Shown piece by piece: positions 316 to 48,259 of a stretch of DNA of 64,000 nt (the first letter of the stretch is position 1; every line of letters starts with the position of its first letter). The position numbers and the translations under genes were made by a program. The notes below the pieces were generated by a model. That model saw only the letters and a program-made list of their open reading frames with translations. It searched no databases and was not told where the DNA came from. The stretch lies in the NCBI RefSeq assembly GCF_055900595.2, contig NZ_CM148325.1. One strand, given 5' to 3'.

Positions 316-355
316 TGAGTTGCGGTGCCGGAAAATATCCAGCACCGCGCCTTCA

Positions 356-1750: not shown

Positions 1751-2226
1751 TATTTACGTTCCCTGAAATAAAAGAGACCCTACGCTTTCCAAAAGGAATA
1801 CGTATATAGAGAAATATAAGGTGTGCACTTTCTAATTTTTAATCCAACTTCAGCAGGCCGATGGATAGTATCCCGCTGCATAATATGAGTAAATCCGCTG
1901 ATTTCCTGGAACGTGAGGAATATAACAATAGTGCCGTTTTTAACTAAATATCGTAAAAAATATTAGATATAATTCACGCTGACTCATAAGCCACAAATAT
2001 AAATAACCTTGCTGCAAAATATGTGCGGCAGTTAAACATTCACAACATCATTAAATAATGATTTTTTATTCACTGCATTTATTTTTCCCATCAATATGTG
2101 CCTTACACCGCAAAATTTATCCTTCACTCTGCCTTATATTGTCACGACTTCACGACATATCCGCGCTCATCACAAAACCGCCCCGCCGTTACAATTAACT
2201 ATAATATTTTTTCATGGAGTCCAATA

Positions 2227-2673
2227 ATGGCAGCACTTACTGCAAGCTGTATTGACCTGAATATTCAGGGCAATGGCACTTATTCCGTTCTGAAGCAGTT
2301 GGCGACAATGGCGTTACAAAACGGTTTTATCACCGACTCACATCAATTCCTGCAAACCCTGCTGGTGCGCGAAAAAATGCACTCCACCGGTTTTGGTTCT
2401 GGTGTCGCCGTGCCGCACGGTAAAAGCGCCTGTGTTAAACAACCGTTCGTATTATTCGCTCGCAAAGCGCAGGCCATTGACTGGAAAGCCAGCGATGGCG
2501 AAGACGTCAATTGCTGGATCTGCCTCGGCGTGCCGCAAAGTGGCGAAGAGGATCAGGTCAAAATCATCGGCACACTGTGTCGCAAAATTATCCACCAGGA
2601 TTTTATCAACCAACTGCGACAAGGCGACGCCGTCCAGGTGCTTGCTTTGTTAAATCAAACCCTCAGCTCATAA
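2227..2673 (+). CDS. frvA: PTS fructose-like EIIA component (148 aa)
   Basis: Translation matches FrvA as recalled; ATG at 2227 chosen over the longer in-frame ORF from 2098. Confidence 0.85.
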   Translation: MAALTASCIDLNIQGNGTYSVLKQLATMALQNGFITDSHQFLQTLLVREKMHSTGFGSGVAVPHGKSACVKQPFVLFARKAQAIDWKASDGEDVNCWICLGVPQSGEEDQVKIIGTLCRKIIHQDFINQLRQGDAVQVLALLNQTLSS

Positions 2674-2683
2674 GGAAGTGGCG

Positions 2684-4135: not shown

Positions 4136-5195
4136 GTTACTGCAACAGTTGTGCGAAGCCAGCGCCGTCAGCGGCGATGAACAGGAAGTTCGCGACATTC
4201 TGATAAACACGCTGGAACCCTGCGTGAATGAGATCACCTTCGATGGTCTGGGCAGCTTTGTTGCCCGTAAGGGGAATAAAGGGCCGAAAGTTGCCGTTGT
4301 CGGGCATATGGATGAAGTCGGCTTTATGGTCACCCACATCGACGAGAGCGGTTTTCTGCGTTTTACCACCATTGGCGGCTGGTGGAATCAGTCGATGCTC
4401 AACCACCGGGTAACCATACGCACACACAAGGGAGTGAAAATCCCTGGTGTAATTGGCTCCGTCGCCCCACATGCGTTAACCGAAAAGCAAAAGCAACAAC
4501 CGCTGTCATTTGATGAGATGTTCATTGATATTGGCGAAAACAGTCGCGAAGAAGCGGAAAAACGCGGCGTGGAAATTGGCAATTTTATTAGCCCGGAAGC
4601 CAATTTTGCCTGCTGGGGCGAAGATAAAATGGTCGGCAAGGCGTTGGATAACCGCATCGGCTGCGCAATGATGGCTGAGCTATTGCAGACGGTGAATAAC
4701 CCCGAAATTACGCTGTATGGCGTTGGCAGTGTGGAAGAAGAAGTTGGGCTACGCGGGGCGCAAACCTCGGCTGAACACATTAAACCGGATGTGGTGATCG
4801 TGCTGGATACCGCTGTCGCGGGCGATGTTCCAGGCATTGATAACATTAAATATCCGCTGAAACTGGGCAACGGGCCGGGGCTGATGCTGTTTGACAAGCG
4901 GTACTTCCCCAACCAGAAACTGGTAGCAGCGTTAAAAAGCTGTGCCACGCAGAATGATTTACCGCTGCAATTTTCCACCATGAAAACCGGAGCGACGGAT
5001 GGCGGGCGCTACAACGTGATGGGCGGCGGGCGTCCGGTTGTCGCGCTGTGCCTGCCAACGCGTTATCTGCACGCTAACAGCGGCATGATTTCAAAAGCCG
5101 ATTACGATGCTCTGCTCACGTTGATACGGGATTTTCTGACCACCTTAACCGCGGAGAAAGTCAACGCGTTTAGCCAGTTCCGTCAGGTGGATTAA
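4125..5195 (+). CDS. frvX: M42-family peptidase/cellulase-like protein (356 aa)
   Basis: Translation matches FrvX as recalled; start overlaps frvB end; stop overlaps frvR start (TAATG). Confidence 0.85.
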   Translation: MNIELLQQLCEASAVSGDEQEVRDILINTLEPCVNEITFDGLGSFVARKGNKGPKVAVVGHMDEVGFMVTHIDESGFLRFTTIGGWWNQSMLNHRVTIRTHKGVKIPGVIGSVAPHALTEKQKQQPLSFDEMFIDIGENSREEAEKRGVEIGNFISPEANFACWGEDKMVGKALDNRIGCAMMAELLQTVNNPEITLYGVGSVEEEVGLRGAQTSAEHIKPDVVIVLDTAVAGDVPGIDNIKYPLKLGNGPGLMLFDKRYFPNQKLVAALKSCATQNDLPLQFSTMKTGATDGGRYNVMGGGRPVVALCLPTRYLHANSGMISKADYDALLTLIRDFLTTLTAEKVNAFSQFRQVD

Positions 5196-6943
5196 TGCTA
5201 AACGAACGCCAGTTAAAGATTGTCGATCTGCTGGAGCAACAGCCACGCACGCCTGGCGAGCTGGCGCAACAGACTGGCGTTTCCGGCAGGACCATCCTGC
5301 GTGATATTGACTATCTCAACTTTACCCTTAACGGCAAAGCCCGCATTTCCGCCAGTGGCAACGCGGGCTATCAGCTGGAAATCTTCGAGCGTCGCAGCTT
5401 TTTTCAGTTGCTGCAAAAGCACGATAACGACGATCGGCTGCTGGCGCTGTTATTACTGAATACCTTCACTCCCCGTGCGCAACTCGCCTCGACGCTTAAT
5501 TTGCCAGAAACCTGGGTAGCAGAGCGCCTGCCCCGCCTGAAACAGCGCTATGAACGCAGTTTTTGTCTCGCCAGTCGCCCCGGCTTAGGTCATTACATAG
5601 ATGAGACGCAAGAGAAACGCATTATTTTGCTGGCAAATCTGTTACGCAAAGATCCGTTTTTAATTCCGCTGGCGGGCGTAACACGAGACAATTTTCAACA
5701 ATTAACCACCGCCTGCGAAAAGCAACGTCGCTGGCCGCTGATGCAAGGCGACTATCTCTCAAGCCTGATTCTGGCTATTTACGCGTTGCGTAATCAGCTT
5801 ACTGACACATGGCCTGAATATCCCGGTAGCGAGATAAAACAGATTGTTGAATATAGCGGCCTGTTTCTTGGTGATAACGCTGTAAGAACGTTGACGGGGT
5901 TGATAGAAAAACAGCATCAACAGGCGCAGGTTATTTGTGTCGATAATGTGCTGGCATTGCTGCAAAGGGTGCCGGGCATTGCGTCATTGAATATTATTGA
6001 TACGCAGCTGGTTGAGAATATTACCGGGCATTTATTACGTTGCCTTGCCGCGCCGGTGTGGATTGGAGAGCACCGCCAAAGCAGCATGAATAACCTGAAA
6101 GCCGCCTGGCCTGCGGCCTTTGATATGAGTCTGCACTTTATTACGCTACTGCGTGAACAACTCGATATTCCCCTTTTCGACAGCGATCTGATTGGTTTGT
6201 ATTTTGCCTGTGCGCTGGAACGGCATCAAAACGAACGCCAGCCGATCATTTTGCTCTCTGATCAAAACGCGATTGCCACTATTAATCAGCTCGCCATTGA
6301 GCGCGACGTCCTGAATTGTCGGGTGATTATTGCCCGCTGCTTAAGCGAACTGGTTGCCATTCACGAAGAGATTGAGCCGTTATTGATCATTAATAACAGC
6401 CATTATTTACTGGATGACGCGGTCAATAATTGCATCACTGTAAAAAATATCATTACGGCTGCCGGTATCGAACAAATAAAACATTTTCTGGCGACGGCAT
6501 TTATTCGCCAGCAACCGGAGCGTTTTTTTTCTGCCCCCGGAAGTTTTCATTATTCGAATGTACGTGGTGAAAGCTGGCAACATATTACCCGGCAAATATG
6601 TGCGCAATTAGTGACGCAACACCACATTACCGCCGATGAAGCACAACGGATCATCGCCCGCGAAAGCGAAGGCGAAAACCTGATTGTTAATCGTCTCGCC
6701 ATCCCACATTGCTGGAGCGAACAGGAACGACGTTTTCGTGGATTTTTTATTACCCTCGCCCAACCGGTTGAGGTGAATAACGAAGTAGTTAACCATGTGC
6801 TGATCGCCTGTGCCGCCGCCGATGCGCGTCATGAGCTAAAAATATTTAGCTATCTTGCCAGCGTATTGTGCCAGCATCCGGCAGAGGTTATTGCCGGGTT
6901 AACAGGATATGAGGCATTTATGGCGTTACTTCACAAGGGGTGA
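5195..6943 (+). CDS. frvR: frv operon transcriptional regulator (582 aa)
   Basis: N-terminal HTH followed by PRD/EII-like domains; operon position. Confidence 0.85.
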   Translation: MLNERQLKIVDLLEQQPRTPGELAQQTGVSGRTILRDIDYLNFTLNGKARISASGNAGYQLEIFERRSFFQLLQKHDNDDRLLALLLLNTFTPRAQLASTLNLPETWVAERLPRLKQRYERSFCLASRPGLGHYIDETQEKRIILLANLLRKDPFLIPLAGVTRDNFQQLTTACEKQRRWPLMQGDYLSSLILAIYALRNQLTDTWPEYPGSEIKQIVEYSGLFLGDNAVRTLTGLIEKQHQQAQVICVDNVLALLQRVPGIASLNIIDTQLVENITGHLLRCLAAPVWIGEHRQSSMNNLKAAWPAAFDMSLHFITLLREQLDIPLFDSDLIGLYFACALERHQNERQPIILLSDQNAIATINQLAIERDVLNCRVIIARCLSELVAIHEEIEPLLIINNSHYLLDDAVNNCITVKNIITAAGIEQIKHFLATAFIRQQPERFFSAPGSFHYSNVRGESWQHITRQICAQLVTQHHITADEAQRIIARESEGENLIVNRLAIPHCWSEQERRFRGFFITLAQPVEVNNEVVNHVLIACAAADARHELKIFSYLASVLCQHPAEVIAGLTGYEAFMALLHKG

Positions 6944-6998
6944 ACTGTGTCGGATGCGCCGCATCCGACACTGCATTTATCACCAAAATCAAAAACAT

Positions 6999-35178: not shown

Positions 35179-35223
35179 TCACGTCCGCCCGTGGGGAAAC
35201 TCACGGGCACAGGGAGAACAACG

Positions 35224-36609
35224 ATGAGTCACATCACAACGGAAGATCCGGCTACTTTACGCCTGCCCTTTAAAGAGAAACTCTCTTACGGTATCGGCGA
35301 TCTGGCCTCTAACATCCTGCTGGATATCGGCACGCTTTATCTTTTGAAGTTTTATACCGACGTTCTGGGGCTGCCCGGTACCTATGGCGGCATTATCTTT
35401 TTGATTTCGAAGTTCTTTACTGCGTTTACCGATATGGGTACCGGCATCATGCTCGATTCCCGACGCAAGATCGGTCCAAAAGGTAAGTTCCGTCCTTTTA
35501 TTCTGTATGCGTCATTCCCGGTCACCTTACTGGCGATCGCCAACTTTGTCGGCACACCGTTTGATGTCACCGGTAAAACGGTGATGGCCACTATCCTGTT
35601 TATGCTCTACGGGCTGTTTTTCAGCATGATGAACTGCTCTTATGGCGCAATGGTCCCCGCTATTACCAAAAACCCCAACGAACGCGCATCACTGGCGGCA
35701 TGGCGTCAGGGTGGCGCTACATTGGGCCTGCTGCTTTGTACGGTGGGATTCGTGCCGGTTATGAATCTTATCGAGGGTAATCAGCAACTTGGCTATATCT
35801 TCGCCGCCACGCTGTTTTCACTGTTCGGCCTGCTGTTTATGTGGATCTGCTATTCGGGCGTGAAAGAGCGTTATGTCGAAACGCAACCTGCAAATCCGGC
35901 GCAAAAGCCAGGCTTGTTGCAGTCTTTCCGCGCAATTGCCGGTAACCGCCCGCTGTTCATTTTGTGCATTGCTAACCTCTGTACCTTAGGGGCATTTAAC
36001 GTCAAGCTCGCCATTCAGGTCTATTACACCCAGTACGTGCTTAACGATCCCATCCTGTTGTCATATATGGGATTTTTCAGCATGGGCTGTATTTTCATCG
36101 GCGTGTTCCTGATGCCTGGTGCAGTCAGACGTTTTGGTAAGAAGAAGGTCTATATCGGCGGCCTGCTGATTTGGGTGCTGGGCGATCTGCTCAACTATTT
36201 CTTCGGCGGCGGCTCGGTCAGTTTTGTGGCGTTCTCCTGCCTGGCATTCTTCGGCTCGGCGTTTGTTAACAGCCTGAACTGGGCACTGGTTTCCGACACC
36301 GTCGAGTACGGCGAGTGGCGCACCGGCGTTCGTTCGGAAGGTACGGTCTACACCGGCTTCACCTTCTTTCGCAAAGTATCTCAGGCGCTGGCAGGTTTCT
36401 TCCCAGGCTGGATGCTGACGCAAATCGGCTATGTGCCAAACGTGGCGCAGGCTGACCATACCATCGAAGGTTTACGCCAGCTGATCTTCATCTACCCAAG
36501 CGCACTGGCGGTAGTCACCATTGTTACGATGGGTTGCTTCTACAGTCTGAACGAGAAAATGTACGTCCGCATTGTTGAAGAAATAGAAGCCCGTAAACGC
36601 ACGGCATAA
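35224..36609 (+). CDS. yihP: GPH-family glycoside/cation symporter-like transporter (461 aa)
   Basis: 12-TM MFS/GPH; paralogue of yihO; ATG 35224 preceded by SD agggagaa. Confidence 0.85.
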   Translation: MSHITTEDPATLRLPFKEKLSYGIGDLASNILLDIGTLYLLKFYTDVLGLPGTYGGIIFLISKFFTAFTDMGTGIMLDSRRKIGPKGKFRPFILYASFPVTLLAIANFVGTPFDVTGKTVMATILFMLYGLFFSMMNCSYGAMVPAITKNPNERASLAAWRQGGATLGLLLCTVGFVPVMNLIEGNQQLGYIFAATLFSLFGLLFMWICYSGVKERYVETQPANPAQKPGLLQSFRAIAGNRPLFILCIANLCTLGAFNVKLAIQVYYTQYVLNDPILLSYMGFFSMGCIFIGVFLMPGAVRRFGKKKVYIGGLLIWVLGDLLNYFFGGGSVSFVAFSCLAFFGSAFVNSLNWALVSDTVEYGEWRTGVRSEGTVYTGFTFFRKVSQALAGFFPGWMLTQIGYVPNVAQADHTIEGLRQLIFIYPSALAVVTIVTMGCFYSLNEKMYVRIVEEIEARKRTA

Positions 36610-36617
36610 ATAATAAA

Positions 36618-36635
36618 CAACGCCCTGCGGGGCGT
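36618..36635 (+). other. Intercistronic stem-loop between yihP and yihO
   Basis: aacgccc-tgcg-gggcgtt perfect 7-bp stem, no T-run; 10 nt after the yihP stop. Confidence 0.5.
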
Positions 36636-36649
36636 TATAAGGAGTGATT

Positions 36650-38053
36650 ATGTCTGACCATAATCCACTGACATTAAAACTGAATCTGCGGGAAAAAATC
36701 GCTTATGGCATGGGCGACGTCGGTTCGAATTTAATGCTTAGCATCGGCACTCTGTATCTCCTCAAATTTTATACCGATGAATTAGGGATGCCTGCTTACT
36801 ATGGCGGGATTATCTTTCTGGTGGCAAAATTCTTTACCGCGTTTACCGATATGCTCACCGGATTTTTACTCGACTCGCGGAAAAATATTGGGCCTAAAGG
36901 CAAATTTCGTCCCTTTATTTTATATGCAGCGGTTCCGGCGGCGTTAATTGCAACGCTCCAGTTTATCGCCACCACTTTTAGTTTGCCGATTAAAACGACG
37001 ATTGCCACCGCGCTGTTTATGATGTTTGGACTTTCATACAGTCTGATGAACTGCTCGTATGGCGCGATGATTCCAGCAATTACCAAAAACCCCAATGAGC
37101 GCGCGCAGCTTGCGGCTTACCGCCAGGGTGGTGCAACCATAGGGCTATTGATTTGTACCGTAGCATTTATTCCACTGCAGTCGCTTTTTTCTGACTCCAC
37201 TGTCGGTTATGCCTGCGCGGCACTGATGTTCTCCATTGGTGGCTTTATTTTTATGATGCTGTGCTACAGAGGCGTCAAAGAGCATTATGTGGACACGACG
37301 CCAACCGGACATAAAGCCAGTATTCTCAAATTTTTTTGCGCGATATTTCGTAATCCGCCATTGCTGGTTTTATGCATTGCTAACCTGTGTACCCTGGCGG
37401 CATTTAATATCAAACTGGCAATTCAGGTCTATTACACCCAGTATGTGCTGAATGATATTAATTTATTGTCGTGGATGGGATTCTTCAGTATGGGATGCAT
37501 CCTCATCGGCGTATTGCTGGTGCCATTAACTGTAAAATGTTTTGGTAAAAAACAGGTTTATTTAGCTGGCATGGTGCTGTGGGCGGTGGGGGATATCCTG
37601 AATTATTTCTGGGGCAGTAACTCTTTCACTTTCGTCATGTTCTCTTGTGTCGCCTTTTTTGGTACGGCCTTTGTGAACAGCCTGAACTGGGCGTTAGTTC
37701 CTGACACCGTAGATTACGGTGAATGGAAAACCGGTATTCGTGCCGAAGGTTCTGTTTATACTGGTTATACCTTCTTTCGTAAAATTTCTGCCGCACTTGC
37801 TGGCTTCTTGCCAGGCATTATGCTGACGCAAATCGGTTATGTTCCCAACATCGCGCAAAGCGATGCAACATTACAGGGTTTGCGTCAGCTCATTTTTATT
37901 TGGCCTTGTGCGCTGGCGATAATTGCTGCATTGACGATGGGATTCTTTTACACGCTCAATGAAAAACGTTTTGCGTTAATTATTGAGGACATCAACCAAC
38001 GTAAAAATAAAGAGATTGAGACAAAAGAAAAAACTGCTTCCGTAACGTTATAA
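36650..38053 (+). CDS. yihO: GPH-family transporter (sulfoquinovose importer, 467 aa)
   Basis: 12-TM MFS/GPH; SD aaggag. Confidence 0.85.
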   Translation: MSDHNPLTLKLNLREKIAYGMGDVGSNLMLSIGTLYLLKFYTDELGMPAYYGGIIFLVAKFFTAFTDMLTGFLLDSRKNIGPKGKFRPFILYAAVPAALIATLQFIATTFSLPIKTTIATALFMMFGLSYSLMNCSYGAMIPAITKNPNERAQLAAYRQGGATIGLLICTVAFIPLQSLFSDSTVGYACAALMFSIGGFIFMMLCYRGVKEHYVDTTPTGHKASILKFFCAIFRNPPLLVLCIANLCTLAAFNIKLAIQVYYTQYVLNDINLLSWMGFFSMGCILIGVLLVPLTVKCFGKKQVYLAGMVLWAVGDILNYFWGSNSFTFVMFSCVAFFGTAFVNSLNWALVPDTVDYGEWKTGIRAEGSVYTGYTFFRKISAALAGFLPGIMLTQIGYVPNIAQSDATLQGLRQLIFIWPCALAIIAALTMGFFYTLNEKRFALIIEDINQRKNKEIETKEKTASVTL

Positions 38054-38120
38054 ATGTCAATAGCCGCTATTTCCATCCTGATGGGTGGCGGCCCCCCTAC
38101 GTTAAAAAAATGGACTTATT

Positions 38121-38813
38121 ATGAAAAAGATTAATGCAATAATTTTATTATCTTCTCTGACCTCTGCCTCGGTATTTGCTGGCGCATACGTCGAAAACAG
38201 GGAGGCATATAATCTCGCCTCCGATCAGGGCGAGGTTATGCTACGTGTGGGTTATAACTTCGATATGGGCGCGGGTATCATGTTAACCAATACCTACAAC
38301 TTTCAGCGCGAAGATGAACTAAAACATGGATATAACGAAATTGAAGGCTGGTATCCGTTATTTAAACCAACCGATAAATTAACCATCCAGCCCGGTGGAT
38401 TAATTAATGATAAGAGCGCCGGTTCCGGTGGTGCAGTATATCTGGACGTCAACTATAAATTTGTACCATGGTTTAATCTGACAGTGCGAAATCGCTATAA
38501 CCATAATAACTACAGTTCAACAGATTTGAACGGGGAGCTGGATAATAATGACACCTATGAAATTGGTACCTACTGGAATTTCAAAATCACCGATAAATTC
38601 TCCTATACATTTGAGCCACATTATTTTATACGCGTAAATGACTTTAATAGCAGCAATGGAAAAGATCATCATTGGGAAATCACTAATACCTTCCGTTACC
38701 GTATTAATGAACACTGGCTGCCTTATTTCGAATTACGCTGGTTAGACCGCAACGTCGAGCCGTATCACCGCGAGCAAAACCAGATTCGTATCGGAACGAA
38801 GTATTTCTTCTGA
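38121..38813 (+). CDS. ompL: KdgM/OmpL-family small outer-membrane porin (230 aa)
   Basis: Signal peptide, beta-strand-rich, C-terminal ...GTKYFF. Confidence 0.85.
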   Translation: MKKINAIILLSSLTSASVFAGAYVENREAYNLASDQGEVMLRVGYNFDMGAGIMLTNTYNFQREDELKHGYNEIEGWYPLFKPTDKLTIQPGGLINDKSAGSGGAVYLDVNYKFVPWFNLTVRNRYNHNNYSSTDLNGELDNNDTYEIGTYWNFKITDKFSYTFEPHYFIRVNDFNSSNGKDHHWEITNTFRYRINEHWLPYFELRWLDRNVEPYHREQNQIRIGTKYFF

Positions 38814-38821
38814 TGTGAAAA

Positions 38822-38889
38822 TGTAAAAAGTCGCTGATATGGACTGCCCCCCATAAAGTTGGACAGTTCAGGTTAAGCGGCTTTTTACA
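38822..38889 (+). terminator. Putative ompL terminator (long imperfect palindrome)
   Basis: tgtaaaaagtcgct ... aagcggctttttaca inverted repeat followed by T-run. Confidence 0.5.
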
Positions 38890-39025
38890 CAGATATTCAC
38901 AATATAAATAACTCCCCATAATTATATAACCACGTTGATTATAAAATATTCCTCGTCCTCTCTATCAAAGTCATTGACTACCAGGTAAGATCTTTTCCAC
39001 CGCAACACTCACAAGGAATGAGAAA

Positions 39026-39874
39026 ATGGAAAAGAAATTTTTTATGGATTGGGATAATGAAATCCCGCAAGAAGAGTTTATTAACAATATTTTAGCCGAT
39101 GAAGACCTGCCTAAAATCCGCTCTCTGATTATTGGTCGTTGGGGGGAGTGCTGGGATGAGGAAAGTTGCCAACCAATAATCGACATGTTTGTTGAACATG
39201 CCGAACGCTTTGCTCATCTCGAATCCCTATTTATCGGCGATATGGAAAGCGAAGAGTGTGAAATTTCGTGGATAAAACAAGGGGATTATTCTCGTCTGTA
39301 TGCTGCGCTGCCGAACCTCAAAAAGCTGACAATTAAAGGTACTCAGGGCCTGGAACTGGGAGAAATCGCCCATGACAAACTGGAGCATCTGGAAATTATC
39401 TCTGGCGGTACGCCGTGTGACGTGTTCGCCTCATTGCAAAATGCCCAACTGCCTGCGTTAAAAACACTTATCGTTTATATTGGCGTTGAGAATTATGGTT
39501 TTGATGCATCGCTGGATATCGTAATGAAGCTGGCGTCGAAATCCCTCTTCCCGAGCCTGACGCATCTTGGCCTGGTGAACAGCGAAGAGCAAAACGAAAT
39601 CGTCCGCCGCGTGCTGGAAAGCGACATTCTGCCGCAACTGGAAGTGCTGGCACTCTCCTGCGGTACGCTTACCGACGAAGGTGCAGAGCATCTTCTCAAA
39701 CATGCCGATCGCCTTAGCCATCTGAAACTGCTGGATTTGTACCATCATTACCTGACAGAAGAGATGCAGAAAAAACTGCAAAAAACACTGACATGTACTC
39801 TCGAATTATCAGAAGCGCTAACGCCTGAAGTCTATGATGACGAAATTTATATGCATGCGATGTATACCGAATAA
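39026..39874 (+). CDS. Cytoplasmic repeat-rich helical protein, LRR-like (282 aa); first gene of accessory six-gene operon
   Basis: Repeated L-x-x-L-x-L segments; no signal peptide; SD aagga; I believe it corresponds to an uncharacterised Salmonella 'STM4015'-type family (unverified). Confidence 0.55.
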   Translation: MEKKFFMDWDNEIPQEEFINNILADEDLPKIRSLIIGRWGECWDEESCQPIIDMFVEHAERFAHLESLFIGDMESEECEISWIKQGDYSRLYAALPNLKKLTIKGTQGLELGEIAHDKLEHLEIISGGTPCDVFASLQNAQLPALKTLIVYIGVENYGFDASLDIVMKLASKSLFPSLTHLGLVNSEEQNEIVRRVLESDILPQLEVLALSCGTLTDEGAEHLLKHADRLSHLKLLDLYHHYLTEEMQKKLQKTLTCTLELSEALTPEVYDDEIYMHAMYTE

Positions 39875-39934
39875 ATGACATTTATTGGGAGAGAGTCATC
39901 TCTCCCATTATTTATCACAGAAAAGGAATTCTTC

Positions 39935-40921
39935 GTGATTACGCTAATTGGTCATCCTGAAAGCAAACGCACATTTTATTTTTGCCAGGCAGCGTCACGC
40001 TTACAGGAACATATCAACGTAGTGAGCTATGATCAAGCACTTACCCTGCTCTTAAATAAAGGCATGGTAAAAATCGATCCCCCCTTACATCAGGAAACAG
40101 ATATTCGCTTAATTAATACGGTTAGCCAAAACTATATTACTTTTTTACAAAAAATGGCTACCAGAAGGGAGATCCGTTTTATTAACTCACCAGAAGGTAT
40201 TATTCATCTTCTGGATAAACGCCACTGTAAGCAACGATTAGTCGAACACGCGATCCCGACACCGCCAATATTAGCGGATGATATCCGTAGCTACGATCAA
40301 CTGATCGCCTGTATGCGCAGCGAAAAGGTTTATCGCGTGTTTATTAAGCCGAATTTCGGATCAGGGGCCGCCGGGGTGCTGGCTTTGAGTCTACATCCCG
40401 GCGATAACCGTCAGGTGCTTTATTGCGCCATCCAGGTTGCAGGTGACAGGCTGGTGAACAGTAAACATATTATCCGCTATGAAAACAGCGGTGATATTAC
40501 GTTGATTGTGAATGCTATTTTACAACAAGACAATATTATCGAACGCTGGCTGGCAAAAGCCAGAGTGGGCAATAAAAGCTACGATTTACGCATCGTGTAC
40601 GTTAATGGTGAAATCGTCTGGCGGGTTGTCAGAACATCATCACAGCCGATCACCAATTTACATTTACAAAATGAAGCTATCCGTTTTGCCGATCTTAATT
40701 TACCCGTAGAAAAAGTAGCTGAAATTGATACGCTTTGTCTCAACGCCATGACCCTCTATCCGGACGTACACATTGCCGGGCTTGACGTATTACTCACGCA
40801 AAATTTAACACCCTATATTATCGAAATTAACGGCCAGGGCGATCTTATTTATCAGGACACCTGCGAAAAAAACAAAATTTATCAACGCCAGATTCAGGTA
40901 ATGAGAGAACATCATGTATAA
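39935..40921 (+). CDS. ATP-grasp-like protein (328 aa from GTG 39935; alternative ATG 39875 would give 348 aa)
   Basis: Fold guess from RimK/glutathione-synthetase-like features (KPNFGSGAAGV glycine-rich loop, ...IIEINGQGD); SD aaggaa precedes GTG. Confidence 0.5.
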   Translation: MITLIGHPESKRTFYFCQAASRLQEHINVVSYDQALTLLLNKGMVKIDPPLHQETDIRLINTVSQNYITFLQKMATRREIRFINSPEGIIHLLDKRHCKQRLVEHAIPTPPILADDIRSYDQLIACMRSEKVYRVFIKPNFGSGAAGVLALSLHPGDNRQVLYCAIQVAGDRLVNSKHIIRYENSGDITLIVNAILQQDNIIERWLAKARVGNKSYDLRIVYVNGEIVWRVVRTSSQPITNLHLQNEAIRFADLNLPVEKVAEIDTLCLNAMTLYPDVHIAGLDVLLTQNLTPYIIEINGQGDLIYQDTCEKNKIYQRQIQVMREHHV

Positions 40922-41786
40922 CGTAACAGACGAAGTACCGGAAAATACCCGCACGGCAATCCATTCCTGCGATGGCGAAATCAATCTGAATGATTTAATT
41001 GCCAGGGAAGCCAATATCCTGTTTGTGGTGCTTGATTCCCTGCGTTTTGATATTGCGTTTCAGGAACAAGAGGCGGGAAATACACCAAATATTAACCGCT
41101 ATGGTCGCTGGATAAAGTGTGAAGCCGCTGGCAATTTTACCTGGCCTTCGCATCATTCGATGTTCTCTGGTTTTATGCCTAAGCCGCTGGAAGCTGCACC
41201 TGGTCATTCAATGCTCTTTTTCCCGAAAGATATTGGTTTAGGTCGTTTAGGGCCAAAAAATGCGTTCGCGTTCAGCGAAGAGACGTGGATTAAAGGGCTG
41301 GAAAACAAAGGTTACCGCACTATCTGCGTGGGTGGCGTCTCCTTTTTTAATAACCGCTCAGGGATGGGAAAAGTGTTCCCGGCGATGTTTAAAGAGAGTT
41401 ACTGGTATCCTAATTTCTCCTGCACGGTGAAAGAGAGCATGGATAATCAGCTCACCTTAATTAACAAAAAGGTGAACGCTGAACAGCCGCTGATGATGTA
41501 TATCAATATCGACACCATTCATTATCCGAATCATTTTTATATTGAAAATGCCAAACCTGGCGATACGGTAGAAACTCACGCCGCTGCCCTGCATTATATT
41601 GATGCCAGAATCGAAAAACTTTTCGATATCTTTCGGCAAACCGGGCGGGAGACGTTAGTTATTCTCTGTTCCGATCATGGCACCTGCTACGGGGAAGACG
41701 GTAAATATTTCCACAGTTTTAACCATCCGATTGTGAATACCGTACCCTATTTTCACTTTGTGTTAGACGGCAAAGACCATGAATAA
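40914..41786 (+). CDS. Alkaline-phosphatase-superfamily metallohydrolase-like protein (290 aa)
   Basis: N-terminal VVLDSLRFD metal-ligand-like motif and C-terminal LCSDHG motif; 8-nt overlap with upstream gene. Confidence 0.5.
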   Translation: MYNVTDEVPENTRTAIHSCDGEINLNDLIAREANILFVVLDSLRFDIAFQEQEAGNTPNINRYGRWIKCEAAGNFTWPSHHSMFSGFMPKPLEAAPGHSMLFFPKDIGLGRLGPKNAFAFSEETWIKGLENKGYRTICVGGVSFFNNRSGMGKVFPAMFKESYWYPNFSCTVKESMDNQLTLINKKVNAEQPLMMYINIDTIHYPNHFYIENAKPGDTVETHAAALHYIDARIEKLFDIFRQTGRETLVILCSDHGTCYGEDGKYFHSFNHPIVNTVPYFHFVLDGKDHE

Positions 41787-43017
41787 TGAATCGATTTATC
41801 AGCAATATATGTACAGTTACCCGCATAAGACCGCTTATCGGGAATTAAACAATATTGCTTTTGCGGATGTGAAATCGCGTATTTACGAGCATAAAACACA
41901 TCTCTATATTCATATGCCTTTTTGCCAGAGCCGCTGCGGGTTTTGTAATCTCTTTACCTGCACGGGGGCAGACAATGCCTTTATCGACAACTACATAGAA
42001 GCAATTATTATCCAGGCCCGGCAAATGCAACTTGCGCCTGTAGACTGGGCCAGTTTTACCATTGGCGGCGGTACGCCACTACTGCTTAATACCGGGCAAC
42101 TGTCACGGTTGTTTCGCGGGGTGTTTGACGAATTACAGGTCGATGCGCAGATTTTTAAGGCAATTGAAACATCGCCTTCCGATACCACCGCCGAAAAGGT
42201 CGCGTTATTGCGCCAGCTTGCGGTAAACCGCGTCAGTATTGGCATTCAGAGTTTTAACGATCTGGAACTTGCCACATTACACCGCCGCCATAGTGCGGAA
42301 AATGCCCATCGGGCGCTGGAGCTACTGCGCAGGGGTAATTTCCCGATAATCAATATTGATATTATTTACGGTATTCCTGGTCAAACAGCCGCAAGTTTAA
42401 TGGCGTCGCTTAATCAAGCATTAGATTATCAGCCTGACGAACTGTTTCTGTACCCGCTATATAACATGCCGCGTCAGCCGGATATGTATAGCCTCTATAT
42501 TGAAGCCCGCGATCGCTTATTGCATGAAGGTTATACGCAAACGTCAATGCGCCGTTTTGTGCGGGTGAATAATGATTCGGCGGCTGAAAGTTGTGGCTTT
42601 GAAAATTCGCTGGCGCTTGGCGCGGGCGGGCGCAGTTATCTTGGCAATTTACATTACTGCACGCCGTGGTCGCAAAACCAGCCCGCATCGCGGCAAATTG
42701 TCACGGATTTTATCGCCCGGCCAGATAAGACCCAGATTCACCACGGCTATGTACTTTCACAAGCAGAAATGAAGCGGCGTTTTATTATCAAGAATCTCTT
42801 TTTCTATAAGGGGCTTTCGTTACGGGATTATCAGCACCAGTTCTTCTCTGAGGTATTAAGCGATTTTCCCCTGCTGGGCGATTTCATCAAACAAGATTAC
42901 TGCCACCAGCAGGATAATCGTATTCTGCTCACCGCGCAGGGTTTAGCGCTTTCGGACCAGCTTGGCCCGCTGTTTATCTCCCCGGAAGTTCGCAGGCTGG
43001 AGACGCATAAACGATGA
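41779..43017 (+). CDS. HemN/HemW-like radical SAM enzyme (412 aa)
   Basis: CQSRCGFCNLF (CxxxCxxC) at 41923-41946 near N-terminus; length and layout like the HemN family, which includes class C radical SAM methyltransferases. Confidence 0.65.
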   Translation: MNNESIYQQYMYSYPHKTAYRELNNIAFADVKSRIYEHKTHLYIHMPFCQSRCGFCNLFTCTGADNAFIDNYIEAIIIQARQMQLAPVDWASFTIGGGTPLLLNTGQLSRLFRGVFDELQVDAQIFKAIETSPSDTTAEKVALLRQLAVNRVSIGIQSFNDLELATLHRRHSAENAHRALELLRRGNFPIINIDIIYGIPGQTAASLMASLNQALDYQPDELFLYPLYNMPRQPDMYSLYIEARDRLLHEGYTQTSMRRFVRVNNDSAAESCGFENSLALGAGGRSYLGNLHYCTPWSQNQPASRQIVTDFIARPDKTQIHHGYVLSQAEMKRRFIIKNLFFYKGLSLRDYQHQFFSEVLSDFPLLGDFIKQDYCHQQDNRILLTAQGLALSDQLGPLFISPEVRRLETHKR

Positions 43018-43871
43018 CGCTCAAGCAGATCCAGACGCTGATTTATCGCGGCGAGATAAAGTCGTGTAATTATCGCTGTGGTTATTGCCCTTTTCATAAA
43101 CAAGACCGCAATGATAAACAGCAGGATGAAGTGGCATTATGGCGCATGGTTGAACATTTACCGGCGCAGGGTTCACCATTAAATGTATTTATTACGCCCT
43201 ACGGCGAAGCATTGCGTTATCGTTATTATATGGCGGCGATGGCGGAAATCAGCCGCTATTCCCATGTGCAGGCGGTGGGTATTCAGACCAACGCCTCTTT
43301 TAATTTATCCACCTTAGTCGCGACTTTTCAGCACTCTCAGGGCGATTTAGCAAAGCTGCGGCTGTGGTGTTCGTTTCATCCTTCCCAGGCAAGTAAAGAA
43401 GTTTTCCTTAAACAGTTACTGGCAATTAAGGACACGGGGATTACCTGTTCTGTGGGGGCCGTCGCCAGCGTAGCCGACTATGACGAATTACAGTGGTTAC
43501 GCGCGCATCTTCCTCCCGATATCTATTTCTGGCTAAACGCCAATGAGCGCGATAAAAGGCCCACCAGCGACGAAAGAAATAGCCAGTTTCAGTTGCTGGA
43601 CCCGCTTTATTATCTGGAAACCAGCCTCTGGCCTGCCAATGTCGAGTTTTGTCTGGGCGGCAAAAAGAGCGTGTTTATGAATGCTGATGGCGATCTCTTC
43701 GCCTGTAATATCAGCAAAATTAAGATTGGCAATTTATATCAACAGCAACTTTCATCTCCGTCTTGTATGTCCAGGCACTGTCACTGTTATCTGGCTTATC
43801 ACCTGCGTGAGGATATTCCGGCCCTCTCACAATTTGATGCTGAACGCTGCTTTCGGATCTTCTCGTTATGA
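43014..43871 (+). CDS. Small radical SAM enzyme (285 aa)
   Basis: CNYRCGYCPF (CxxxCxxC) at residues 18-25; additional C-terminal Cys cluster SPSCMSRHCHC; ATGA overlap with upstream gene. Confidence 0.6.
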   Translation: MTLKQIQTLIYRGEIKSCNYRCGYCPFHKQDRNDKQQDEVALWRMVEHLPAQGSPLNVFITPYGEALRYRYYMAAMAEISRYSHVQAVGIQTNASFNLSTLVATFQHSQGDLAKLRLWCSFHPSQASKEVFLKQLLAIKDTGITCSVGAVASVADYDELQWLRAHLPPDIYFWLNANERDKRPTSDERNSQFQLLDPLYYLETSLWPANVEFCLGGKKSVFMNADGDLFACNISKIKIGNLYQQQLSSPSCMSRHCHCYLAYHLREDIPALSQFDAERCFRIFSL

Positions 43872-44563
43872 TCTGGCGGTTAATCGCGCTCGATTTAGAC
43901 GGCACATTGCTGAACAGCAAGAAGATGATTTCCCCTGCGTCTGTTTCGGCACTGCAAAGCGCACAACAGGCAGGTGTGAAAATTATCCTCGCCACCGGAC
44001 GTTCGCACAGCGAAGCCCTGCCTTATTACCAACAATTGCAGTTAACCGAGCCGATGATTTGCTGTAACGGCAGCTATCTTTATCATCCGCGCCAGCGGCA
44101 AATATTGCGTCCGCTGGCGCTTGATATCCACAAGGTGGAAAGGCTACGACTCTGGTTTTCACAACAAATATTGCAGCCAAATATTTATACGTACGATGAT
44201 TTTGTTTTGCAGATTAGCCTGATACACCGCAAGGCTTCGTTATTGCGCCAGACAGAGGAATTTGCCCGACAAGAATTATCGCTGGCCTGTAGCTGGTCCT
44301 GGCATCATCAACTGGATATTACACAGGTGGGGTGTGAGAAAGGCAAAAGTCTGGCCTGGTATGCCCGACAGCAAAATATCGTGCTGGATGAAATCATCGC
44401 CTTTGGCGATAACGATAATGATGCGGGGATGCTGCGGATGGTAGGCAAAGGGATTGCGATGGGCAATGGCAGTTCGCTGGCAAAAGTCAGTGCTGACCGC
44501 GTTATTGGTCACAACAACACAGATGCTATTGCGGATTTTCTTGATGCGCAGGGTTTCAGATGA
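43868..44563 (+). CDS. HAD-superfamily (Cof-type) phosphatase (231 aa)
   Basis: Motif I LIALDLDGTLL; motif GDNDNDAGM near C-terminus; ATGA overlap with upstream gene. Confidence 0.7.
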   Translation: MIWRLIALDLDGTLLNSKKMISPASVSALQSAQQAGVKIILATGRSHSEALPYYQQLQLTEPMICCNGSYLYHPRQRQILRPLALDIHKVERLRLWFSQQILQPNIYTYDDFVLQISLIHRKASLLRQTEEFARQELSLACSWSWHHQLDITQVGCEKGKSLAWYARQQNIVLDEIIAFGDNDNDAGMLRMVGKGIAMGNGSSLAKVSADRVIGHNNTDAIADFLDAQGFR

Positions 44564-44600
44564 CGCCTGATGCGATGCTGACGCATCTTATCAGGCCTAC
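44562..44600. repeat. REP element
   Basis: gacgcctgatgcgatgctgacgcatcttatcaggcctac. Confidence 0.7.
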
Positions 44601-44605
44601 AAAAG

Positions 44606-44636
44606 CAAAAAACCTGCCATCGCTGGCAGGTTTTTT
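44606..44636. terminator. Bidirectional intrinsic terminator (six-gene operon and bipA)
   Basis: A-run, hairpin cctgccatcgctggcagg, T-run. Confidence 0.75.
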
Positions 44637-44653
44637 ATGACTAAAAAACGAAA

Positions 44654-46477
44654 TTAATCGTCTTTCGGTGCGCGGTTGGCGCGACGACGATCGTTTTCCG
44701 TCAGGTGACGTTTACGAATACGGATAGAGGTCGGAGTCACTTCTACCAGTTCGTCATCATCGATGAACTCCAGCGCTTGTTCCAGCGTCATGCGGATAGG
44801 CGGAACCAGAACAACGGCTTCGTCAGTACCGGAAGCACGCATGTTGGTCAGTTTCTTACCGGTCAGACAGTTTACAGTCAGGTCGTTAGAACGGCTGTGA
44901 ATACCGATAATCTGACCTTCGTAAACTTCTGCACCGTGACCGAGGAACAGCTTACCGCGATCCTGCAGACCGAACAGCGCGAACGCGACCGCTTTACCCT
45001 GACCGTTAGAGATCAGTACGCCGTTCTGACGCTGACCCACTTCACCCGGACGCACGTCGTCGTAGTGGCTGAAGGTGGAGTACAACAGACCCGTACCAGA
45101 GGTCATGGTCATGAACTCAGAACGGAAGCCAATCAGACCACGGCTTGGGATCACGTAGTCGAGACGTACGCGGCCTTTACCGTCTGGATTCATGTTTTTC
45201 AGGTCGCCTTTACGTTCGCCCAGCGCCTGCATCACAGAACCCTGATGCTGTTCTTCAACGTCCAGCGTCACGTTTTCATACGGCTCTTGTTTACGACCGT
45301 CGATTTCACGGAAGATAACTTTCGGACGGGATACCGCCAGTTCGAAACCTTCACGACGCATGTTTTCGATCAGAACAGACAGGTGCAGTTCGCCACGACC
45401 AGAAACGCGGAACGCATCGGCGTCTTCAGTTTCTTCTACGCGCAGCGCAACGTTGTGTACCAGTTCTTTGTTCAGACGATCCAGAATCTGACGAGACGTT
45501 ACGAACTTACCTTCTTTACCGCAGAACGGCGAGGTGTTAACGCAGAAGAACATAGAAACGGTCGGCTCATCAACGGAGAGTGCCGGCAGCGCTTCAACGT
45601 TTTGCGTGTCGCAAACGGTGTCAGAAATGTTCAGTTCGCCCAGGCCCGTGATCGCCACGATATCGCCAGCTTCCGCCAGATCGGTTTCGATACGTTCCAG
45701 ACCGAGGTGGCCCAGCACTTTACCGACTTTCGCGTTGCGGGTTTTGCCTTCGCTATCGATGATAGTAACTTGCTGGTTCGGCTTCACTTTACCGCGCTTG
45801 ATGCGGCCAATGCCGATAACGCCAACATAGCTGTTGTAATCGAGCTGAGAAATCTGCATCTGGAACGGACCGTCAAGGTCAACGTCCGGCGCAGGAACGT
45901 GGTCAACAATTGCCTGATACAGCGGGGTCATGTCTTCCGCCATATCTTCGTGGTCCAGACCGGCGATACCGTTCAGCGCAGAAGCGTAAACGATCGGGAA
46001 GTCCAGCTGCTCGTCGGTCGCGTCGAGGTTAACGAACAGGTCGAATACCTGATCCACAACCCAGTCAGGACGCGCGCCAGGGCGGTCAACTTTGTTGATA
46101 ACAACAATTGGCTTCAGGCCGTAAGCAAACGCTTTTTTGGTTACGAAGCGCGTTTGCGGCATCGGGCCGTCAAATGCGTCAACCACCAGCAGCACTGAGT
46201 CTACCATGGACATTACACGTTCAACTTCACCACCGAAGTCGGCGTGCCCCGGGGTATCAACGATGTTGATACGGTAATCATTCCATTTGATAGCGGTGTT
46301 TTTCGCGAGGATGGTAATCCCACGCTCTTTCTCCAAATCGTTGGAGTCCATCACGCGCTCTTGGGTTTCGGCACGAGAGTCGAACGTACCGGATTGTTGG
46401 AGCAGCTTGTCTACCAGGGTGGTTTTACCATGGTCTACGTGCGCGATGATGGCGATATTACGCAATTTTTCGATCAC
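44654..46477 (-). CDS. bipA: Ribosome-associated translational GTPase BipA/TypA (607 aa)
   Basis: G-domain motifs [18 protein letters not shown]. Confidence 0.95.
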
Positions 46478-46628
46478 AACTTTGCCTCAGGCATTAGAAA
46501 TAGCGCGTTATTGTACACGGATTAATCGCACTACAAAACAGGATCACAAACATCCTCCGCAAACAAGTATTGCAGAGTCCCTTTGTGATCGCTTTCACGG
46601 AGCATAAAAAGGGTTATCCAAAGGTCAT

Positions 46629-46720
46629 TGCACCAATATGGTGCTTAATGTTTCCATTGAAGCACTATATTGGTGCAATATTCACATCGTGGTGCAGCCC
46701 TTTTGCACGATGGTGCGCAT
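46629..46720 (+). promoter_or_regulatory. NtrC (GlnG) enhancer sites upstream of glnA
   Basis: Repeated TGCACCA-N-TGGTGCA dyads (tgcaccaatatggtgc, gcactatattggtgcaa, tggtgcagcccttttgcacgatggtgcgca). Confidence 0.75.
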
Positions 46721-46750
46721 GATAACGCCTTTTAGGGGCAATTTAAAAGT

Positions 46751-46766
46751 TGGCACAGTTTTCGCT
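46751..46766 (+). promoter_or_regulatory. sigma-54 promoter glnAp2
   Basis: tggcacagttttcgct matches the -24 GG / -12 GC consensus. Confidence 0.75.
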
Positions 46767-46849
46767 TTATCTTTTTTACGGCGACACGGCCAAAATAATT
46801 GCAGATTTCGTTACCACGACGACCATGACCAATCCAGGAGAGTTAAAGT

Positions 46850-48259
46850 ATGTCCGCTGAACACGTACTGACGATGCTGAACGAGCACGAAGTGAAGTTT
46901 GTTGATTTGCGCTTCACCGATACCAAAGGTAAAGAACAGCACGTCACTATCCCTGCTCATCAGGTGAATGCTGAATTCTTCGAAGAAGGCAAAATGTTTG
47001 ACGGCTCCTCGATTGGCGGCTGGAAAGGCATTAACGAATCCGACATGGTGCTGATGCCAGACGCATCCACCGCAGTGATTGACCCGTTCTTCGCGGACTC
47101 TACCCTGATTATCCGTTGCGATATCCTTGAACCAGGCACCCTGCAAGGCTATGACCGTGACCCGCGTTCCATCGCGAAGCGCGCTGAAGATTACCTGCGT
47201 TCTACTGGCATTGCCGACACCGTACTGTTCGGGCCAGAACCTGAATTCTTCCTGTTCGATGACATCCGTTTCGGCGCGTCTATCTCCGGTTCTCATGTTG
47301 CCATCGACGATATCGAAGGTGCATGGAACTCCTCCACCAAATATGAAGGTGGTAACAAAGGTCACCGTCCGGCAGTGAAAGGCGGTTACTTCCCGGTTCC
47401 GCCGGTAGACTCTGCTCAGGATATCCGTTCTGAAATGTGTCTGGTGATGGAACAGATGGGACTGGTAGTTGAAGCCCATCACCACGAAGTAGCGACTGCT
47501 GGTCAGAACGAAGTGGCTACCCGCTTCAATACCATGACCAAAAAAGCTGACGAAATTCAGATCTACAAATATGTTGTGCACAACGTAGCACACCGCTTCG
47601 GTAAAACCGCGACCTTTATGCCAAAACCGATGTTCGGTGATAACGGCTCCGGTATGCACTGCCACATGTCACTGTCTAAAAACGGCGTCAACCTGTTCGC
47701 TGGCGACAAATATGCAGGTCTGTCTGAGCAGGCGTTGTACTACATTGGCGGCGTAATCAAACACGCTAAAGCAATTAACGCCCTGGCAAACCCGACCACC
47801 AACTCTTACAAGCGTCTGGTCCCGGGCTACGAAGCACCGGTAATGCTGGCTTACTCTGCGCGCAACCGTTCTGCGTCTATCCGTATTCCAGTGGTTTCTT
47901 CTCCGAAAGCACGTCGTATCGAAGTCCGTTTCCCGGACCCAGCGGCTAACCCGTACCTGTGCTTTGCTGCCCTGCTGATGGCCGGTCTTGATGGTATCAA
48001 GAACAAGATCCACCCAGGCGAAGCCATGGACAAAAACCTGTATGACCTGCCGCCAGAAGAAGCGAAAGAGATCCCACAGGTTGCAGGCTCTCTGGAAGAA
48101 GCACTGAACGAACTGGATCTGGACCGCGAGTTCCTGAAAGCCGGTGGCGTGTTCACTGACGAAGCCATTGATGCGTACATCGCTCTGCGTCGCGAAGAAA
48201 ATGACCGCGTGCGTATGACTCCGCATCCGGTAGAGTTTGAGCTGTACTACAGCGTCTAA
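46850..48259 (+). CDS. glnA: Glutamine synthetase (469 aa)
   Basis: Translation matches GlnA. Confidence 0.95.

Follow-up and report, generated by a model that had tools for sequence, protein, structure and literature searches.

This analysis concerns a six-gene cassette on a stretch of Escherichia coli DNA of 64,000 nucleotides, here called the window (NCBI RefSeq assembly GCF_055900595.2, contig NZ_CM148325.1; positions count from its first letter). Six plus strand open reading frames (ORFs) occupy the space that separates ompL from bipA, the place given for them in the initial annotation of this DNA, and K-12 MG1655 carries yihL-yihM-yihN in the same bipA-ompL interval. Searches of NCBIfam and Pfam bear out the families that had been read from the sequence, namely a leucine-rich repeat (LRR)-like protein, an ATP-grasp enzyme, a metallohydrolase, a HemN-like radical S-adenosylmethionine (SAM) enzyme, a second radical SAM enzyme and a haloacid dehalogenase (HAD) phosphatase. 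The guess that the genes correspond to the STM4011-STM4015 families was also right, as all five proteins exceed the curated NCBIfam cut-offs. The genes, their flanks and two elements that bear on their interpretation are:

38121-38813: ompL, flanking gene
39026-39874, plus strand: STM4015-family LRR protein, 282 aa (NF038076, 323 bits against a cut-off of 275)
39827-39871, plus strand: acidic C-terminal tail of the LRR protein, EVYDDEIYMHAMYTE, with its terminal Glu codon at 39869-39871
39886-39917, plus strand: intercistronic hairpin (GGGAGAGAG/CTCTCCC) with a T-rich run, a terminator-like match
39935-40921, plus strand: STM4014-family ATP-grasp ligase, 328 aa from the predicted GTG start (NF038074, 337 bits against 175)
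40914-41786, plus strand: STM4013/SEN3800-family enzyme of the alkaline phosphatase superfamily, 290 aa (NF038075, 351 bits against 250)
41779-43017, plus strand: STM4012-family HemN-like radical SAM enzyme, 412 aa (NF006067, 492 bits against 380)
43014-43871, plus strand: STM4011-family radical SAM enzyme, 285 aa (NF038073, 300 bits against 200)
43868-44563, plus strand: Cof-type HAD-IIB phosphatase with a short cap, 231 aa (TIGR00099, 179 bits against 137)
44654-46477: bipA, convergent with the cassette, its stop at 44654

The initial annotation described all six genes as translationally coupled. Most junctions are as it gave them, with genes overlapping by 8 nt at 40914 and 41779 and by ATGA at 43014 and 43868, and the TAA/ATG abutment at 39874/39875 is present in the window sequence. 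However, the ATG at 39875 is most likely not the real start of STM4014, which we place at the GTG at 39935, because the NCBIfam STM4014 match starts only at residue 23 of the ORF 39875-40921, because the PGAP annotation uses the GTG equivalent to 39935, which is preceded by an AAGGAA ribosome-binding site, and because an in-frame ATG at the position of 39875 is missing from a second E. coli lineage. With this start, coupling would hold for five genes, and STM4015 would be set apart from them by a 60-nt spacer that contains the hairpin. The hairpin has a 9-bp stem followed by UUAUUUAU and a folding energy of -20.9 kcal/mol (z -2.7). Hairpins with other stem sequences lie at the same place in the second E. 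coli lineage and in Superficieibacter, making three enterobacterial lineages in total, and as the stems differ at the same position it is the structure, not the sequence, that is conserved. Possibly it acts as an attenuator or as a stabiliser of the mRNA. STM4015 has its own ribosome-binding site, GGAATGAG, upstream of the ATG at 39026.

Among 5,426 complete E. coli genomes, 157 cover 80% or more of the 5.9-kb segment, and the others match its flanks alone. Identity to the STM4015 protein of the window is 93% in E. fergusonii, 92% in E. marmotae, 73% in Salmonella and 65% in Superficieibacter, which retains the ompL-cassette-bipA synteny, and relatives at about 50% identity are found in many gut Lachnospiraceae, Clostridia, Bacteroides and Parabacteroides. 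A scan of one genome per species listed 600 pattern matches, and among these at least 577 encode a relative. We retained 80 loci for counting the gene order, 60 of them with enough downstream DNA; STM4015, STM4014, STM4013, STM4012 and STM4011 are all present and colinear in 57 of the 60, which come from other species. Elsewhere, too, the genes are strongly co-conserved. Cassettes annotated by PGAP also occur in Deinococcus, Streptomyces, Methylobacterium and Paenibacillus, and the phyla number at least five (Pseudomonadota, Bacillota, Bacteroidota, Actinomycetota and Deinococcota). A candidate minimal module of LRR protein and ligase only, in two loci, was rejected, because at the end of the contig there is a partial ORF resembling STM4011. 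When 1,544 flanking ORFs were clustered, no recurrent transporter, regulator or protease emerged, and the top cluster was an antisense artefact. Since no other gene recurs in the flanks, the cassette is self-contained and its contexts are variable, and we conclude that the locus is a self-contained, horizontally mobile cassette of five core genes and a HAD phosphatase.

The place of the HAD becomes apparent when looking at other lineages, where 47 of 63 STM4011 ORFs are at least 450 aa long, the size of a STM4011::HAD fusion. The fusion was confirmed in one locus (L007; NF038073 at 324 bits together with a Cof-type HAD), and Pfam Hydrolase_3 is matched in L002-L008. Judged from these ORFs, the HAD is an integral member of the cassette that is usually fused to STM4011 in other lineages. 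A soil locus (L012) has a type IA HAD in place of the Cof-type IIB one, and the Deinococcus, Streptomyces and Paenibacillus cassettes have no HAD within them. The E. coli HAD was rejected as an orthologue of the fused ones, with 21% identity (E 6e-4) to the Bacteroides fusion; given this low identity it could be a replacement by a Cof paralogue. Other apparent fusions, in Firmicutes metagenome-assembled genomes (MAGs), join neighbouring enzymes:

L033, 1157-3064: apparent STM4014::STM4013 fusion, 635 aa
L072, 11890-14136: apparent STM4013::STM4012 fusion, 748 aa
L082, 3571-5157: apparent STM4013::STM4012 fusion, at least 528 aa

No STM4015::STM4014 fusion was found in about 90 loci. STM4014 lies directly 3' of STM4015 in almost all of them.

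The STM4015 family holds 2,296 clusters at 50% identity, 420 of them with E-values of at most 1e-30. We surveyed the C-termini of the 147 best representatives, with mutual identity of at most 50%, and found a terminal Glu in 140; the seven exceptions are C-terminally truncated or tail-less. E282 is invariant in a 61-sequence alignment, where it is one of ten invariant columns. An E79/S81/W82 motif is invariant as well. The last 25 residues have a median net charge of -7 across the family, and the tail has an acidic and aromatic consensus, SDxQExD..DGExYRYVAV[S/G/T]E, which in gut lineages becomes ...YxYPM[L/I/F]TE. The protein as a whole is acidic as well (isoelectric point (pI) 4.6, net charge -28; family median pI 4.4), and STM4014 and STM4011 are basic, with median pI values of 8.3 and 8.5. 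Additional domains are seen at the N-terminus only. A WGR domain is present in 13 of 34 N-terminally extended members, and TPR, DM9 and further LRR domains occur too; WGR is the commonest of these fusions. A 598-aa paralogue that arose by internal duplication retains the tail on its last copy alone. Additionally, two to three tandem STM4015 paralogues, all ending in Glu, lie upstream of the ligase in Deinococcus, Streptomyces and a marine contig:

L098, 7957-9822: tandem STM4015 paralogues
L099, 7914-9837: tandem STM4015 paralogues
L095, 8029-9960: tandem STM4015 paralogues
L105, 1073-5846: tandem STM4015 paralogues

An AlphaFold2 model of STM4015 is a LRR solenoid with a mean confidence (pLDDT) of 97.5. 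Its closest relative of known structure is PDB 2RA8 (E 1.6e-71, 45% identity in the Foldseek alignment, TM-score 0.88), followed by LRRs of the NLR, F-box and ribonuclease-inhibitor types. 2RA8 is a structural-genomics entry (Bacteroides fragilis Q64V53) to which no function was assigned. It ends in ...YPMITE before the tag, and the tag follows directly after the terminal Glu. It differs in a N-terminal extension of about 80 residues, in the region where WGR-fused members carry their WGR domain.

The ligase gene next to STM4015 encodes a protein with invariant K95, K138, E203, D284, E297 and N299 and with a match to Pfam ATPgrasp_YheCD (1.6e-5). The modelled protein has its top structural match in ArgX with LysW (3VPB, 24.5), followed by LysX/ArgX with LysW-gamma-aminoadipate (5K2M, 24.0) and, in third place, RimK (4IWX, 23.2); glutathione synthetase (22.2) and DcsG (22.1) score lower. 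The best non-self NCBIfam matches are MptN, the RimK family, LysX and CofF. These relatives are informative about what a terminal Glu might be for. LysX charges LysW with alpha-aminoadipate at the C-terminal Glu, and LysX/ArgX more generally join an amino acid to this Glu of their carrier (PMC12998189). RimK is described in PMC10375531 as adding Glu to ribosomal protein S6's C-terminus.

The invariant Glu, the acidic tail, the domains added at the N-terminus only, the tandem paralogues and the hairpin suggest that STM4015 is the substrate or carrier of the ligase, and that it is probably not the passive scaffold that the initial annotation had proposed. We give a probability of about 0.4 to the reading that STM4015 is a carrier or substrate, that STM4014 ligates onto its terminal Glu and that the radical SAM enzymes and phosphoesterases do the tailoring. 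Under this reading STM4015 would be made in excess over the enzymes, to which the hairpin after the gene would contribute; a hairpin there fits the need for more substrate protein than enzyme. STM4014, as a distant RimK/LysX-type enzyme, would activate a terminal-Glu carboxylate as an acyl-phosphate and then couple this Glu to an amine or amino acid, in the manner of LysX/ArgX on LysW and of RimK on S6, and we infer Glu282 to be the ligation site. The tethered group, or the tail itself, could then be remodelled by the HemN-like STM4012 and the SPASM/twitch-type STM4011, and STM4013 and the HAD phosphatase may add, move or remove a phosphate-containing group. The multi-step modification pathway of the initial annotation is compatible with the evidence but had been left generic.

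Looking at the points that weigh against this reading can help to judge how far it should be trusted. The similarity of STM4014 to RimK and LysX is far under the family cut-offs in sequence, with 37.6 bits against 143.4 for the RimK family (TIGR00768) and 31 bits against 275.6 for the LysX model. The tail is ordered in the AlphaFold2 model (pLDDT about 88-97), so the terminal Glu may be conserved for structure. One MAG locus (L050) appears to lack STM4014. A 789-aa member (L103/L104, 8001-10370) has the same tail and no cassette within 8 kb, and a 994-aa member (L096, 291-3275) keeps tail and Glu with no ligase downstream, on what is a short contig. No amidase or peptidase for product release is encoded in the cassette, in contrast to the LysW pathway with its LysK, and a simple amino-acid ligation leaves the roles of the two phosphoesterases unexplained. 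We regard it as doubtful, though still conceivable, that the folded LRR protein itself is a covalent carrier or an end product whose Glu is extended by the RimK/LysX-like ligase and then rebuilt by the radical SAM enzymes with the phosphoesterases assisting.

The comparison with the characterised ligase systems shows both the likeness and its limits. In combining a ligase with a terminal Glu, STM4014/STM4015 resembles LysX/LysW and RimK/S6, and an acidic STM4015 with basic STM4014 and STM4011 resembles the acidic LysW with its basic partner enzymes. However, LysW is a small Zn-ribbon carrier with an EDWGE tail, whereas STM4015 would be a 282-aa LRR carrier with a different tail motif. The LysW pathway also includes an aminotransferase and a M20 hydrolase, neither of which is encoded in the cassette, nor is any release enzyme. 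The cassette likewise lacks the kinase and reductase that are part of the LysW pathway (PMC12998189). Unlike the S6 case, STM4015 is encoded beside the ligase, with four further enzymes strictly co-conserved. Because of the LRR fold, the scores below cut-off and the different downstream enzymes, the cassette belongs to neither the LysW/LysX nor the RimK systems.

The remaining enzymes are compatible with an alternative in which the pathway works on a free phosphorylated metabolite. STM4013 matches Pfam Sulfatase (3.7e-16) and Phosphodiest (4e-6), and its D41, T76, D254 and H255 are kept in at least 93% of 80 homologues; with metal ligands and nucleophile in place it belongs to the alkaline phosphatase superfamily. 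Its T76-W-P-S-H aligns with the sulfatase C-x-P-x-R motif and does not have the formylglycine pattern. Phosphodiesterases and phosphoethanolamine transferases typically use a Thr nucleophile, and the site of STM4013 is of this phosphodiesterase/phosphotransferase type, not that of a formylglycine sulfatase. The idea that STM4011 could be an anSME-like maturase of STM4013 was rejected, since T-W-P-S-H replaces C/S-x-P-x-R and the anSME match covers the CxxxCxxC region only.

Both CxxxCxxC motifs reported in the initial annotation stand up to alignment. CQSRCGFC in the 412-aa STM4012 (C49/C53/C56) has its Cys residues 100% conserved in 76 homologues, as has CNYRCGYC in the 285-aa STM4011 (C18/C22/C25) in 71. 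STM4012 matches Pfam Radical_SAM (9.6e-20) and, weakly, HemN_C (0.002), and it conserves GGGTP at 96-100 and a N-terminal YxxYMYSYPHK in addition to its three Cys. These features, including the N-terminal Y-S-Y-P, are shared with the HemN family. Despite this it falls under the equivalog cut-offs of HemW (137 against 205.4), HemN (124.4 against 324.95) and ChuW/HutW (124.1 against 400), as well as that of HemZ. The residue following the third Cys+1 is Cys in HemN and Phe in HemW, whereas it is Leu in STM4012. The likeness to class C radical SAM methyltransferases, which the initial annotation had brought up, is limited to the HemN-like fold and motifs.

STM4011 matches Pfam Radical_SAM at an E-value of 8e-4 and SPASM weakly at 0.004 (residues 213-247). 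We looked for SPASM or twitch domains by a C-terminal Cx9-15Gx4C with further Cys, a full SPASM domain having seven Cys. STM4011 has C213-x12-G226-x4-C231 and C251-x4-C256-x-C258, five Cys that are 100% conserved in the 71 homologues, making up a conserved Cys set of SPASM/twitch type with Cx12Gx4C and three further invariant Cys. This set fits a one-cluster (twitch-like) or a partial SPASM domain. The HAD protein has the DLDGT and GDNDND motifs and the features of a Cof-type HAD-IIB phosphatase. The pyridoxal phosphatase YbhA model PRK10530 matches it at 207.6 bits, below the cut-off of 274, and in two stretches, and since the match is split the cap appears to have been shortened by deletion.

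In a small-molecule pathway, which the initial annotation had considered, STM4014 would ligate, the radical SAM enzymes would carry out C-C or C-H chemistry, the phosphoesterases would trim, and the LRR protein would be a non-covalent scaffold, chaperone or regulator. The catalytic residues are kept in all of the enzymes, the presence of two phosphoesterases suggests a small phosphorylated substrate, and the variation of HAD type between lineages (Cof-type IIB, or IA in the soil locus) is what could be expected for a simple dephosphorylation. LRR domains typically mediate contacts between proteins, and the ordered tail of the model can be read in the same direction. This explanation does not account for the near-absolute Glu, for added domains being confined to the N-terminus, for the tail missing from the internal copy or for the paralogues. 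Additionally, neither flank clustering nor Rfam revealed a transporter, regulator or riboswitch with the cassette, and the enzymes structurally closest to the ligase have protein C-termini as their substrates. We consider it rather unlikely on balance.

A different alternative keeps the protein as substrate but treats it like a precursor of a ribosomally made, post-translationally modified peptide (RiPP) or a pearlin, with the tail (Y-x-Y-P-M-x-T-E or R-Y-V-A-V-S-E, with or without an appended residue) being cross-linked or rearranged and then cut by a protease encoded elsewhere. Conserved aromatics do lie 5-7 positions ahead of the terminal Glu, the Cys signature of STM4011 is of SPASM type and enzymes with it mostly have peptide substrates, several paralogues of the would-be precursor exist, and many RiPP operons have a hairpin 3' of the structural gene. 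The routes to pyrroloquinoline quinone (PqqA/PqqE), mycofactocin (MftA/MftC) and the pearlin 3-thiaglutamate would share with the cassette an encoded polypeptide in which the C-terminal end is important, a radical SAM enzyme of SPASM type and more than one paralogue of the substrate. They differ in that the cassette has no short precursor, RiPP recognition element (RRE), peptidase or PEARL enzyme, and its leader would be a folded LRR protein. There is no precedent for such a leader of 280 aa, no protease, RRE domain or transporter is encoded in the cassette, and the tail varies much between lineages except for the Glu. Searches for the usual marks of a RiPP locus found no small upstream ORF, no recurrent small flanking gene and no RRE in Pfam or NCBIfam.

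The region where a precursor gene or a regulatory element might have been expected is:

38814-39025, plus strand: ompL-STM4015 intergenic region of 212 bp, presumed promoter and 5' untranslated region

Its plus strand has no ORF of 20 aa or more except one that overlaps the STM4015 start, so the initial annotation had been correct in seeing no precursor-peptide ORF upstream. A Rfam scan of the region gave no match and no riboswitch, and promoter-like matches occur in it at chance frequency only. With no small plus strand ORF and no Rfam match, both an upstream precursor peptide and a riboswitch were dismissed. A RiPP-like or pearlin-like route is, in our estimate, very unlikely.

The remaining alternative is a role in conflict or anti-phage defence, in which the LRR protein, often with WGR, would sense an invader and the enzymes would make a toxic or signalling molecule. 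This becomes attractive when considering the patchy distribution in E. coli (the 157 of 5,426 genomes above) and the relatives at about 50% identity across phyla in variable contexts. LRR and WGR are common as sensor domains, WGR being nucleic-acid-binding, and genes of the nSTAND NTPase, HipA, RES-Xre or RloB/AAA_21 kinds neighbour some of the loci. Homologues in phages exist for the two partners of soil-lineage cassettes, a DUF6745 protein and one of about 100 aa. The pattern of divergence within E. coli could also be read this way. Compared with the cassette of NZ_AP027764, the divergence of the window between 38800 and 44700 is mosaic: STM4015 has 86% nucleotide and 84.6% amino-acid identity and the spacer about 78%, against 96% for STM4014, 98% for STM4012, 94% for STM4011 and 93% for the HAD, and STM4013 is 100% identical across more than 1 kb (40800-42000). 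STM4015 is thus the most divergent gene between the two lineages, at 85% of amino acids against 100% for STM4013. The mosaic suggests recombination, fast evolution of the LRR gene, or both.

Much speaks against a defence function. PADLOC 2.0 gave a single match for the six proteins, of 22.7 bits between STM4012 and the candidate PDC-M51A, and for a WGR-fused STM4015 homologue a 20-bit match that lies within the WGR domain only; the DUF6745 and ~100-aa proteins had none, and we rejected membership in a known defence system. The cassette contains no nuclease, pore, TIR or Sir2-type effector, the defence-type neighbours are not recurrent, and in the Enterobacteriaceae the site is fixed between ompL and bipA (Escherichia and Superficieibacter) and is not a defence island. 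Matches in mobile elements are few. Five phage records match, all Salmonella or E. coli, some being just 1.4-2.8 kb or matching at the record end, and 15 plasmid records do, mostly large non-mobilizable replicons. Carriage by phages or plasmids was discarded for this reason, the phage records being short or unannotated. We take a defence role to be unlikely.

Of the readings considered, that of STM4015 as a carrier or substrate of the ligase is the one we prefer, and its consequences can be set against what was known. RefSeq already gives the E. coli genes names from NF038076, NF038074, NF038075, NF006067 and NF038073, and these NCBIfam models are hypothetical equivalogs or subfamilies that carry no function. 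In the library searched, the literature on STM4010-4015, SEN3800, 2RA8, Q64V53, DUF6745 and several domain combinations yielded nothing on function, the full-text mentions being incidental (a positive-selection list and an antisense sigma-54 chromatin immunoprecipitation (ChIP) site). With NCBIfam, PADLOC and the literature searched, no characterised pathway matches, in line with the initial annotation. As the families are catalogued and the structure of one component has been solved, the locus as such is not a discovery. In at least five phyla, two radical SAM enzymes, an ATP-grasp enzyme and a phosphoesterase have stayed together with a single LRR protein, in hosts that include major gut commensals and Salmonella, and the crystal structure of one component dates from 2007. 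The terminal-Glu rule turns this catalogued unknown into a concrete and testable idea.

Were the folded LRR protein a covalent carrier or end product rebuilt in the way described above, the cassette would form a novel class of radical SAM pathway templated by a protein, spread over at least five phyla and with Salmonella, a part of E. coli and many Lachnospiraceae and Bacteroides of the gut among its hosts, and the product could be an unknown cofactor, signal or protein modification. If STM4015 is indeed the carrier or substrate of the ligase, the C-terminal ligation and carrier chemistry of LysW, S6 and tubulin would extend to a LRR scaffold and to radical chemistry, and a new metabolite or modification may emerge from its study. 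If the idea is wrong, the cassette would still be among the better-defined unknown operons of enteric bacteria.

Several observations concern the surroundings of the cassettes in other lineages. The DUF6745 protein, which has a LRR-like N-terminus, and the ~100-aa protein (GDVL...GEVTGHxH...HEEH; phrog_27831) adjoin some cassettes of Deinococcus, Streptomyces, soil contigs and Methylobacterium, in the last of which they lie on the same strand and immediately upstream:

L098, 13948-15257: DUF6745/~100-aa pair
L099, 6228-7692: DUF6745/~100-aa pair
L100, 5443-6768: DUF6745/~100-aa pair
L095, 14187-15502: DUF6745/~100-aa pair
L010, 6238-7555: DUF6745/~100-aa pair

A literature search on the two proteins, like PADLOC, had no matches; they may be extra components of the cassette version of these lineages. 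In L095 (GCA_014648095.1), a SWIM-DUF5691-MoxR(AAA_5)-DUF5682-VWA cluster occupies 1-6994 beside the cassette, and the 789-aa STM4015 member of L103/L104 sits among AAA_21/RloB and SMI1_KNR4 genes.

A sigma-54 ChIP site has been mapped inside the Salmonella STM4013 gene (PMC3844500). The equivalent in the window (41163-41180, minus strand) was rejected as a regulatory site: it has three mismatches, and 5 of 100 shuffles match by chance. Being antisense and within conserved coding sequence, it is probably non-functional in E. coli.

Downstream of the HAD gene, two non-coding elements were found:

44565-44600, no strand assigned: repetitive extragenic palindromic (REP)-type element, GCCTGATGCGATGCTGACGCATCTTATCAGGCCTAC, 3' of the HAD stop
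44606-44637, no strand assigned: bidirectional intrinsic terminator, common to the operon and the convergent bipA

The terminator shared with bipA, which the initial annotation had described, consists of a 14-bp GC-rich stem with A- and T-runs on its sides, located between the HAD stop at 44563 and the bipA stop at 44654. A weak naRNA4 match at 44530-44597 (30 bits against a gathering score of 59.5) covers the REP element, and a match to a STnc370-like small RNA at 44601-44669 on the minus strand (53.2 bits against 54) covers the bipA 3' end and the terminator. Further out, the window has yihP/yihO-type transporters and then ompL at 35191-38813, the transporters being annotated in K-12 as putative sulfoquinovose and 2,3-dihydroxypropane-1-sulfonate transporters, and bipA and glnA at 44654-48259. 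From ompL to midway through the cassette the G+C content is 38-46%, compared to 51-54% in bipA.

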